From an uncultured Candidatus Saccharibacteria bacterium (GTDB taxonomy: Bacteria; Patescibacteriota; WWE3; UBA101185; UBA10185), in the NCBI GenBank assembly GCA_964385105.1, contig CAYLMU010000002.1, positions 186,583 to 250,582 of the forward strand: a stretch of DNA of 64,000 nt, read 5' to 3'. A program made the position numbers and the translations under genes. Shown one piece after another: positions 48,173 through 52,907 of this stretch. Each line of letters starts with the position of its first letter. Within the stretch, counting starts at the first letter, position 1. The notes below the pieces were generated by a model that saw only the letters and a list, made by a program, of their open reading frames with translations, made no database searches and was not told the DNA's origin.

Positions 48173-48835
48173 TTGTATATGAGCCATTTTAACGAAATAG
48201 ACTTTGGAATTCCTTTGTCTGATGAAAGTCAAAACACAAATAGTGAGGTTACTGACGCTATAGTAAGCTTACAATCAGAAGGATTTACTATAAGCCCAAT
48301 AATTCAAGAACAGTTTGAGGACGGAGACTTATCAAAGGCATTGGGAGAAAAGTTTTCTTCAACTGAAATAAGAGAGTTTATAAAAAACAGTAGTCTTTTT
48401 TTAGATTTTAGAGCATCAGAAAAAGCATTGATTATGCTTGGAGATAACGTAACAATCCCCGAATCAATTGGTGCAAATGGAACTATTAGAAGAAGCGAAA
48501 CAGGGCAACGTGTATTAATAAGCGTTTTAGAAAGTGAAGGTATTGATCCATCTAAGGTTTTGATGTTTCGTGTGACTCAACCTAGTGAGTTACCAAAACC
48601 TGAATACTATTGGACATCTGCGTACTTTGAAGCAGTCAATGGCTTAAACGAAGAAATAGATCCGTAAATTAGATCACAGTCTGTTATTTTGGTTAGTACA
48701 ATTAAAGAAATAAATACAAATGAGGGGCTGATTGTAGATATAAATGATGATAACCAATTACCTGTACGACAAATAGGATTGGCGCCCTTTGATCAATCTC
48801 GATGTTTAGCTATTATAACAAGAGAAGTTTTATAG
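48173..48835 (+). pseudogene. Paralog copy 1 of a 214-aa unknown protein; in-frame TAA at 48665-48667 where copy 2 has GAA
   Basis: Aligns along its length with 52263..52907. The ORF ends ...EEIDP at TAA, but the same frame continues IRSQSVILVSTIKEI...RQIGLAPFDQSRCLAIITREVL, homologous to the copy 2 C-terminus. Confidence 0.5.
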
Positions 48836-49158
48836 AAGTATTCTTCTAGTCCAGCTGGTTTCCCACTCTTTATCTGTTTCAACCTTTTGTTTCGGATTTC
48901 TATATTCGATATTCGTTTTTCTAGTTCATCTATTGTTATGTATAAATTTTATCACGTGAAATTATACAAAATGTCGTAGCTCAAAATGGACAGTTTTTTG
49001 ATACTATTTTAGAATTTTCTTTCGTGACAGTAAGTGTTGTTTTCAACTTTGGGTGGGTATTAGCAAACAAGTTCGAACTATATTATATGCATAATTATAT
49101 TAAACTTCGTGTTATAGAGTTTATTGATGGAGACCCCAAGTCTATTATGCTCAAAAAG

Positions 49159-50283
49159 CTAGTTTTTGCTAATACCCTTAACTAGTCTTTCGCCAATACC
49201 TTTTGCTTCAAATTTTGCTAGTTCTCTTCTTATATCCTCAATAGTACCTATCACATTACAAGACAATCTCTTATCTAAGTCGATTTTTTGAGCTTTCATC
49301 TCGTCTCTACTCAACCAACTCCCTCCCACTTCTACTCTGAAACCAAATCTTGATGCAAATTGAGCCATTGTAGGGTTTGTAGTACCAGATAATGCTATTA
49401 AGTGAACATTGCCTAACTGATGTTGTTCGAAAGCGTGTAAAAAATTTTTCATTCCTCTATATGCCATTGCCATCGCTACTCTCGGGTCTACTTCGCCCGG
49501 TGATGTTGCATTGAAAGGTGTGAAGTCTATTTTTGCTATTTGTGATTCCCCGACTGTTACAAATATTCCACATGACTTAAAATAAGTGTTTCCTGGATCG
49601 CTTTTGTCAATATTATATCTTGTAAGAAAATTATTTTCACCCTCGTAAGCTGTGTTTGTATTATTGTAATGGCTTTCTTCTCCCGATAAAGTTAGGTATG
49701 AGTGTGGGTTAAAATAACGATATTCTTCCTCATCTTCATAATATTCTGGCTCGTATTCATCACCTCCAAAGTCCAAAAAGTCATAGGCTCTATTTGCCAT
49801 GTCAACTAATCTACCTCTTAGAATGTATGTCTCTGTATTTTCTTCTGCCTCTGGTATTAATTTTGATGCTCTTTCTGAAGTATCCGCTAATATATAAATC
49901 TCAGGGTATCGTAAATGTTCAAATCTGTTGTTTGGTATTTTGGACATTTGTAAAATTACTCTATACAAAGGCGATTCAGTTCCTATTTCAATATTGTTAG
50001 CTTCAGCTATCCTTGTTAGTAAAGAAATGTCCTCTATAAGTTCTTGTAAGTCGTGTTCGGTTACTAAAGCATGCGTCAATTGTTCTGAGCGATACGCTAT
50101 TAAGCTTTCAGGGTTTGATATGTGTAACTCTGTAAGTGTCTCTGGGAATTCCTCGTTCCAGCCAATTGAATTGTAATTCTCCCTTATAGATGACCAACTT
50201 TTCGCTAAGTTCACATCACTTTCTGCTACCTCATGAGGTTGTCCCTCACCATGTTCTACAATGTTTGATGCTAATCTAGGCAC
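49159..50283 (-). CDS. Hypothetical 374-aa protein with an acidic Tyr/Glu-rich linker and a possible GNAT-like C-terminal fold
   Basis: No confident motif. Central GGDEYEPEYYEDEEEYRYF; C-terminal VAMAMAYRGMKNF...HLIALSGTTNPTMAQFASRFGFRVE is loosely acetyltransferase-like (weak). Confidence 0.45.
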   Translation of the reverse strand: MPRLASNIVEHGEGQPHEVAESDVNLAKSWSSIRENYNSIGWNEEFPETLTELHISNPESLIAYRSEQLTHALVTEHDLQELIEDISLLTRIAEANNIEIGTESPLYRVILQMSKIPNNRFEHLRYPEIYILADTSERASKLIPEAEENTETYILRGRLVDMANRAYDFLDFGGDEYEPEYYEDEEEYRYFNPHSYLTLSGEESHYNNTNTAYEGENNFLTRYNIDKSDPGNTYFKSCGIFVTVGESQIAKIDFTPFNATSPGEVDPRVAMAMAYRGMKNFLHAFEQHQLGNVHLIALSGTTNPTMAQFASRFGFRVEVGGSWLSRDEMKAQKIDLDKRLSCNVIGTIEDIRRELAKFEAKGIGERLVKGISKN

Positions 50284-50416
50284 GGTTAATACTTAAATTA
50301 ATTTTCATAAGAACATTATATCATGTTGATTTATCTTGTGGCTTGTGCCTAGAAATATTGTTGTTATAGGTAGAAAACCATGGCTGGGCGTTGGAGTCCA
50401 AGTTCGAACTATAGTC

Positions 50417-51346: not shown

Positions 51347-52139
51347 CTAGTTCCTTCAATTCCAAATTCACTTGTTCCTTAACTACTTTATACTCCGGAT
51401 ATTCTTCAAAAAGAATTTTCTCTTTACTATCGTCGTAATATGGAACACCATTCCCTCTGTTCTTTACTAGACCACTTGTAATTAGTGCTAGTGAATAATT
51501 ATGAGGATTTACTTCTCTTTCTAAGATTCCCCCAATTTTGGTATAAACGTTTCTAGGTACAATATACGCAATCAAATTGTTATATGAAGGTAAAACCTTC
51601 GCATGTGCATAATATTTCAGATTTATGCTTGGGATATTGTGTCTCCACTCAAAAAAATGATTTTCTGCCACGAGGGTGTAGTCAATAGTATCGGATAAGC
51701 TTTTTGCATTTATAACTAACTCAATTACATTTTTGGCTGTCGTTCCAGTTCCAATTTCATCATCGACAAATAAAACTTTTTCTATCTTCAGTTCTTCTGG
51801 TATTTCTTGTTCTACATAACTAGTAAGTGATGAATTATCAAAATCTTTGCCTATAACTTCAATTTCTTCTTTTTTGTTATGACGATATGCAGGAATTGAA
51901 AATATAGGAGGTTTTTTTATGTTTTTAGTACCGTATATTAAGTCAACAATTTTTGTTGAGTAAAGACCGCTGTTGCCACCGCTTATTACCAAATCATATT
52001 TGTTGTTTTCAATCAAACTAGATATAGTTTTTACATACTTTCTAATTCTGTCTTTAGCAACTTCTCTAAGGTCATATTTTTTATCTCTTACATGTTGTGC
52101 TAATTCGCGATGTAAGTCACGCTCGTTAAAGTTTGTCAT
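51324..52139 (-). CDS. Type I phosphoribosyltransferase-fold protein
   Basis: PRPP-binding loop VLFVDDEIGTGTTAKNVIELV and the upstream DLVISGGNSG flexible-loop region; 271 aa. Overlaps the APH-like stop by 23 nt. Confidence 0.55.
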   Translation of the reverse strand: MTNFNERDLHRELAQHVRDKKYDLREVAKDRIRKYVKTISSLIENNKYDLVISGGNSGLYSTKIVDLIYGTKNIKKPPIFSIPAYRHNKKEEIEVIGKDFDNSSLTSYVEQEIPEELKIEKVLFVDDEIGTGTTAKNVIELVINAKSLSDTIDYTLVAENHFFEWRHNIPSINLKYYAHAKVLPSYNNLIAYIVPRNVYTKIGGILEREVNPHNYSLALITSGLVKNRGNGVPYYDDSKEKILFEEYPEYKVVKEQVNLELKELVERTVNG

Positions 52140-52262
52140 CTAGTAGAAATTATACATCAGTTCGAATTTCCTGATGGCTTACATTTGAAAGTGCTGTTGT
52201 TATAAAAAGAAAACCTTGGCTGGGCGTGTCGGTCAGGAACTGAATCGGTTATAATAGCATGT

Positions 52263-52907
52263 ATGAATGAAATAGATTTTAGTTCATTCTTATCCGATGA
52301 ACACGAAAATACAAACGATGAATTGTCCGGTGCTATAGCTAGGCTTCAGTCAGAGGGTTTTAGTATCAACCCAATGACACAAGAAGTGTTTGAGGACGAA
52401 GGTCTATCAAACGCATTGGGTGAGAAGCTTTCCTCAGCTGAAATAAGAGAGTTTATAAAAAACAGTAGTCTTTTTTTAGATTTTAGAGCATCAGAAAAAG
52501 CATTGATTATGCTTGGAGATAACGTAACAATCCCCGAATCAATTGGTGCAAATGGAACTATTAGAAGAAGCGAAACAGGGCAACGTGTATTAATAAGCGT
52601 TTTAGAAAGTGAAGGTATTGACCCAGCAAAGGTACTGATGTTTCGCGTAACTCAGCCCAGTGACACACCAAAACCCGAATATTACTGGACTTCTGATTAC
52701 TTTGAAGTAGTTAAAGGGCTAAACGCAGAGATAGATCCAGAACTTAGGTCACAGTCTGTTATTTTAGTTAGTACTATTGAAGAAATAGATAAAGACGAAG
52801 GTCTTATTGTTGATATAAACGATGATAGCGGAATGCCTGTTAGACAAATAGGATTGGGGTCCTTCGATCAATCCCGATGCTTAGCTAGTATTAAGACACA
52901 TAATTGA
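52263..52907 (+). CDS. Paralog copy 2 (intact, 214 aa) of the unknown protein family also at 48173..48835
   Basis: Intact ORF; -10-like GGTTATAAT 10 nt upstream. Confidence 0.55.
   Translation: MNEIDFSSFLSDEHENTNDELSGAIARLQSEGFSINPMTQEVFEDEGLSNALGEKLSSAEIREFIKNSSLFLDFRASEKALIMLGDNVTIPESIGANGTIRRSETGQRVLISVLESEGIDPAKVLMFRVTQPSDTPKPEYYWTSDYFEVVKGLNAEIDPELRSQSVILVSTIEEIDKDEGLIVDINDDSGMPVRQIGLGSFDQSRCLASIKTHN

Follow-up and report, generated by a model that had tools for sequence, protein, structure and literature searches.

Arrangement of the locus

Positions 48173-52907 of the window, which is the whole 64,000-nt stretch of DNA that was analysed, raise the question of whether five neighbouring genes make up a single cassette or have come to lie side by side independently. 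All five open reading frames (ORFs) reported in a first-pass annotation were found. A truncated member of a paralogous gene family (copy A, 48173-48667, plus strand, 164 aa) is followed by three genes on the minus strand, which encode an orphan protein of 374 aa (49159-50283), a kinase of the APH family (50417-51331, 304 aa from an ATG at 51331) and a type I phosphoribosyltransferase (PRTase)-like protein (51324-52139, 271 aa), and then by an intact member of the paralog family (copy B, 52263-52907, plus strand, 214 aa). The minus-strand trio is tightly packed, with a gap of 133 nt between the kinase gene and the gene for the 374-aa protein, and the PRTase and copy B genes are transcribed divergently from either side of a 123-nt spacer. 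The surroundings in the window are sugar-nucleotide and glycosyltransferase genes, and the GC content of the region is 34.6%, compared with 32.8% for the window. An independently assembled contig (L001) is 100% identical to the window at 48517-50652.

The region had been thought to carry local repeat elements and to have been acquired or to be recombinationally active. However, besides the paralog pair just short matches of 20-36 nt and low identity were detected, and the repeats on either side are paralogous coding genes rather than IS elements. No integrase, transposase or recombinase Pfam domains were found in the neighbouring genes, no mobile-element genes within about 13 kb, no GC anomaly, and no tRNA gene or Rfam match in the window.

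Duplication of the flanking genes and decay of copy A

The paralogy of the flanking genes was borne out by BLASTP comparison of copy A with copy B (82% aa identity, E = 1e-94). The DNA sequences are 86% identical across 300 nt at a constant offset of 4,075 bp, which is also the start-to-start spacing of the two genes. The homologous stretch of copy A covers ~48188-48845, and its ORF is cut short by an in-frame TAA (48665-48667, plus strand) at the place of codon 160 of copy B, which is GAA; beyond this codon, the homology goes on in frame to ~48845. The TAA is also carried by contig L001. In addition, copy A has lost two residues that are invariant in the family (D145 to A and G190 to Q). Reassignment of the stop codon was considered and rejected, as the other ORFs are normal in translation table 11 and invariant residues have also been lost. 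As judged by sequence, copy A is becoming a pseudogene, and copy B is intact.

As judged by windowed identity in the alignment, the paralogs include a tract of 184 nt (48363-48546, plus strand) that is 100% identical to 52438-52621 in copy B and is bordered by sequence of 60-84% identity. The presence of this tract in both copies suggests that gene conversion has probably occurred between them.

Predicted fold of the paralog family

Scans against Pfam, NCBIfam, PADLOC and PHROGs gave no match for either paralog. None of 44 members of the family matched a Pfam ADP-ribosyltransferase (ART) family, and the family profile had no significant sequence match in the PDB. The predicted structure of copy B consists of a helical N-terminal domain (residues 19-83) and an alpha/beta domain (residues 84-214) with the split beta-sheet, NAD+-binding fold of the ART superfamily. 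The C-terminal domain of the family is thus predicted to take an ART-like fold, similar to that of ADP-ribosyltransferase toxins, and invariant residues that are candidates for an R-S-E or H-Y-E triad are R128, T143/S144 (or Y141), and one of E156, D184 and D188.

Copy B differs from known ADP-ribosyltransferases (DUF952/CC0527, Tpt1/KptA, cholera/pertussis-type toxins, DarT, RES toxins and Arr) in having no sequence-profile similarity to them and in an additional N-terminal helical bundle. Unlike the ART toxins, the family was found with neither a secretion signal nor a toxin-immunity partner, and its neighbourhoods are housekeeping-like. The catalytic tetrad of Tpt1 is Arg-His-Arg-Arg; identity as a Tpt1-like RNA 2'-phosphotransferase was rejected, since the family has no invariant His. 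A literature search for ADP-ribosyltransferases of Patescibacteria returned nothing relevant.

Members of the family occur in Patescibacteria and in records labelled as Woesearchaeota. Elsewhere they adjoin genes for an AddA-like helicase, recA/recX or PNPase, and in a contig labelled as Woesearchaeota their neighbours are unannotated. At one further locus (L021), a family member is followed by an APH-family kinase different from that of the window. This kinase belongs to another branch (22% identity, E = 0.05) and was not accepted as evidence that APH kinases and the paralog family are linked. Given the divergent layout of copy B and the PRTase gene together with the L021 kinase, a functional link between an ART-like protein and a kinase may still exist.

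The kinase and its coupling to the PRTase gene

The first-pass annotation had recognised an APH-type kinase and had stated that none of the five proteins matches a family that could be named with confidence. The former is confirmed and the latter is wrong for the kinase, which clearly matches Pfam family APH (PF01636) at 60.2 bits, where the cut-off is 23.2 (E = 3.3e-16). An ortholog at another locus (L006) scores 73.3 bits, is 70% identical and starts at the equivalent Met. The alignment with the APH/choline kinase family spans both lobes. In the catalytic loop, HVDLSLDH, the His and the catalytic Asp are retained, as is the metal-binding Asp of the IDF motif, and both orthologs have His where the HxDxxxxN motif has Asn. 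Among solved structures, hygromycin-B 4-O-kinase, APH(4)-Ia, is the nearest relative (E = 4e-6 in the PDB), and an Arg at the beta3 position is common to the kinase and the active hygromycin kinase. The match to this enzyme is nevertheless weak, both in the PDB search and in NCBIfam (21.9 bits, where the cut-off is 725), and the scores for all NCBIfam equivalogs lie far under their cut-offs. A metagenome scan with the alignment of the two kinases found no relative.

The kinase gene is coupled to that of the PRTase, an arrangement that is not known for resistance enzymes such as APH(4)-Ia. An overlap of 23 nt between the two genes had been proposed, and this depends on a TTG start at 51346. With the ATG at 51331, the overlap is 8 nt (ATGGATAA), and the layout is identical in the L006 ortholog pair.

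The PRTase-like protein and the joint occurrence of the pair

The assignment of a PRTase fold to the second protein of the pair holds with respect to its motif and falls short in the profile scores. A PRPP loop, VLFVDDEIGTGTTA, at residues 121-134 has the four hydrophobic and two acidic residues followed by x-x-T-G-x-T that define the loop of type I PRTases (PF00156), and it is preceded by G-N-S-G-L at the position of the PPi loop. All Pfam scores are under the curated cut-offs, namely 17.6 against 26.3 bits for Pribosyltran (E = 2.5e-3), 22.1 against 27 for PRTase-CE (E = 1.5e-4) and 17.5 against 28.8 for PRTase_2, and the family profile gave no significant match in the PDB. Unlike type I PRTases, the protein carries a C-terminal extension of ~120 residues with the invariant motif AE[NH]HFFEW. 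Identity as a ComFC-like competence protein, raised by the ComM-type Mg-chelatase neighbours of some distant relatives, was rejected, as the protein lacks the Cys zinc-finger N-terminus and this neighbourhood is not general. Given the canonical PRPP loop and the catalytic and metal-binding Asp residues kept in the kinase, both enzymes may be active.

The pair recurs together once, in L006, where the PRTase ortholog is 65% identical. L006 shares no further gene with the window, and there a PsbP-like gene, not the gene for the 374-aa protein, comes after the pair. The GC content of the L006 pair is 31.4%, compared with 40% in the remaining locus, and in the window the pair matches the local 33%. 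The pair thus appears, from its composition, to have been acquired horizontally in L006, and its movement as a unit would be represented by two instances (n = 2). No such kinase gene adjoins the PRTase gene at ~25 more distant PRTase relatives, and none was near it at any of 17 loci from scans of metagenomes and species-representative genomes with the PRTase alignment. Scans of viral contigs and tblastn searches of phages and plasmids for further copies found nothing.

An anti-phage or toxin-antitoxin module, with the PRTase as an effector that perturbs the nucleotide pool, comparable with ShosT or the retron III-A effector, and the kinase as a sensor or neutraliser, is one explanation of such a pair. 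PRTase toxins are documented in published accounts of ShosTA and Retron-Eco11 (PMC11961720, PMC12746101). The weak matches to PRTase-CE and to the retron III-A effectors of PADLOC (E = 8e-6) point in this direction, as do the overlapping two-gene layout, the patchy distribution, the foreign GC content in L006, and the location of some distant PRTase relatives in mobile or defence-rich islands with genes for an integrase, a TraG/DUF87 ATPase, PIN, HNH and Vsr proteins and a DNA methylase. However, these PRTase matches are all under curated thresholds and reflect mostly the generic PRPP loop, those in PADLOC being confined to that region, and the kinase matches no PADLOC model. The partners of retron III-A, ShosT and PRTase-CE effectors are missing, with no associated ncRNA and no reverse transcriptase, CD-NTase or DprA-like gene within ~13 kb. 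The family is also missing from viral contigs and from phage and plasmid records, and most of its members stand alone next to housekeeping genes. A defence-system scan, as had been recommended, gave no meaningful match to defence models, no phage or plasmid signal was found, and a literature search on PRTase-CE returned nothing relevant. A defence role for the pair is therefore considered unlikely.

About equally unlikely is a role of the pair in the ordinary salvage of nucleotides or sugars by a symbiont of reduced metabolism, with a sugar or nucleoside kinase acting beside a PRPP-dependent transferase. Reduced genomes of this kind rely on salvage, the PRTase weakly matches PyrR and the PRTases for xanthine and adenine, one of its distant relatives is followed by a ROK-family gene, and the surrounding genes include sugar-nucleotide and glycosyltransferase genes. 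Nevertheless, the PRTase family is very rare, with 13 clusters (90% identity) in a set of 5.8 billion proteins, which would be unexpected for core salvage. In its distant members the PRPP loop is degenerate (DDEIMRAxT) and has lost the T-G, the pair looks horizontally acquired in L006, and no named salvage equivalog comes near its cut-off.

The 374-aa protein

The acidic linker noted previously, DEYEPEYYEDEEEYRYF, is present in a stretch predicted with low confidence (pLDDT < 50, residues 171-189), and it separates a helical N-terminal domain (~23-172) from an alpha/beta C-terminal domain (~200-374). The C-terminal domain had been described as loosely GNAT-like. Its predicted fold does resemble weakly the GNAT fold of DfoC, Rv0802c and LasI, but the match is not statistically significant (Foldseek E = 0.2), and the loop between strand 249-254 and helix 267-286, PFNATSPGEVDP, lacks the acyl-CoA pyrophosphate motif Q/R-x-x-G-x-G/A. 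No match was found for the protein in Pfam, NCBIfam, PADLOC or PHROGs, nor for the C-terminal domain in Pfam or by sequence in the PDB, even with a 22-sequence profile. Homologs at four other loci (L002-L005) have genes for an ABC-F ATPase or a DEAD helicase as neighbours, and no kinase, PRTase or paralog gene is near them. The 374-aa protein is best described as rare and lineage-restricted, with a C-terminal domain that is possibly GNAT-like.

One cassette or three units

The minus-strand trio had been interpreted as one cassette for the modification of, or self-resistance to, an antibiotic or toxin, acquired between the paralog copies. Its genes are closely packed on one strand, the nearest solved relative of the kinase is an aminoglycoside (hygromycin B) kinase, the C-terminal domain of the 374-aa protein is weakly GNAT-like, and the ART, APH and GNAT folds are each used by known antibiotic-modifying enzymes. 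However, the likeness of the kinase to resistance enzymes is at the family level only, and the GNAT match is insignificant, with the acyl-CoA P-loop motif absent. The 133-nt gap separates the 374-aa gene from the pair in the window, the PsbP-like gene takes its place in L006, and the 374-aa family never accompanies the pair elsewhere. When the trio was sought in other genomes by tblastn with four proteins across all fetched loci, only the kinase and PRTase were found to co-occur, and only in L006. In a sample of about 4 to 25 loci per family, the neighbourhoods of 374-aa homologs and of paralog-family members were always unrelated, which argues against a paralog-bracketed cassette of either three or five genes. 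A single acquired cassette is therefore improbable. The trio did not map to any characterised housekeeping pathway, and neither flanking gene has a characterised function.

The interpretation that we favour, with moderate confidence, is that three units with separate evolutionary histories are juxtaposed here, in a variable, glycan-biosynthesis stretch of a small, low-GC genome that probably belongs to the Patescibacteria. The first would be the duplicated gene with a predicted ART fold, its copy A decaying, its copy B intact and the tract exchanged between them by gene conversion. The PRTase and kinase genes would form the second, an operon translationally coupled via the 8-nt overlap and inherited or transferred jointly, and most likely the two enzymes would catalyse linked steps, phosphoryl and phosphoribosyl, on a small substrate resembling a nucleobase, nucleoside, sugar or aminoglycoside. 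The third would be the 374-aa protein, whose distribution is unrelated to those of the other two. A more far-reaching interpretation, offered tentatively and as a whole, is that the paralogs represent an undescribed, sequence-orphan family of NAD+-utilising ART-fold proteins of Patescibacteria and DPANN-type archaea, linked to ultra-small symbiosis, and that the PRTase and kinase make up a new system of two enzymes, mobile by horizontal transfer, for resistance, toxin-antitoxin activity or defence that has no described counterpart.

Significance

Regarding the five genes as a chance juxtaposition guards against annotating them as one system. The PRTase-kinase pair, apparently transferred horizontally, may represent a new and compact module for conflict or for the modification of small molecules. 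The genomes of Patescibacteria and DPANN-type archaea include many unannotated proteins, and a predicted fold for a well-conserved bacterial-archaeal family provides a testable hypothesis, namely NAD+-dependent modification or NAD+ cleavage, for a protein that is likely to matter to ultra-small symbionts.

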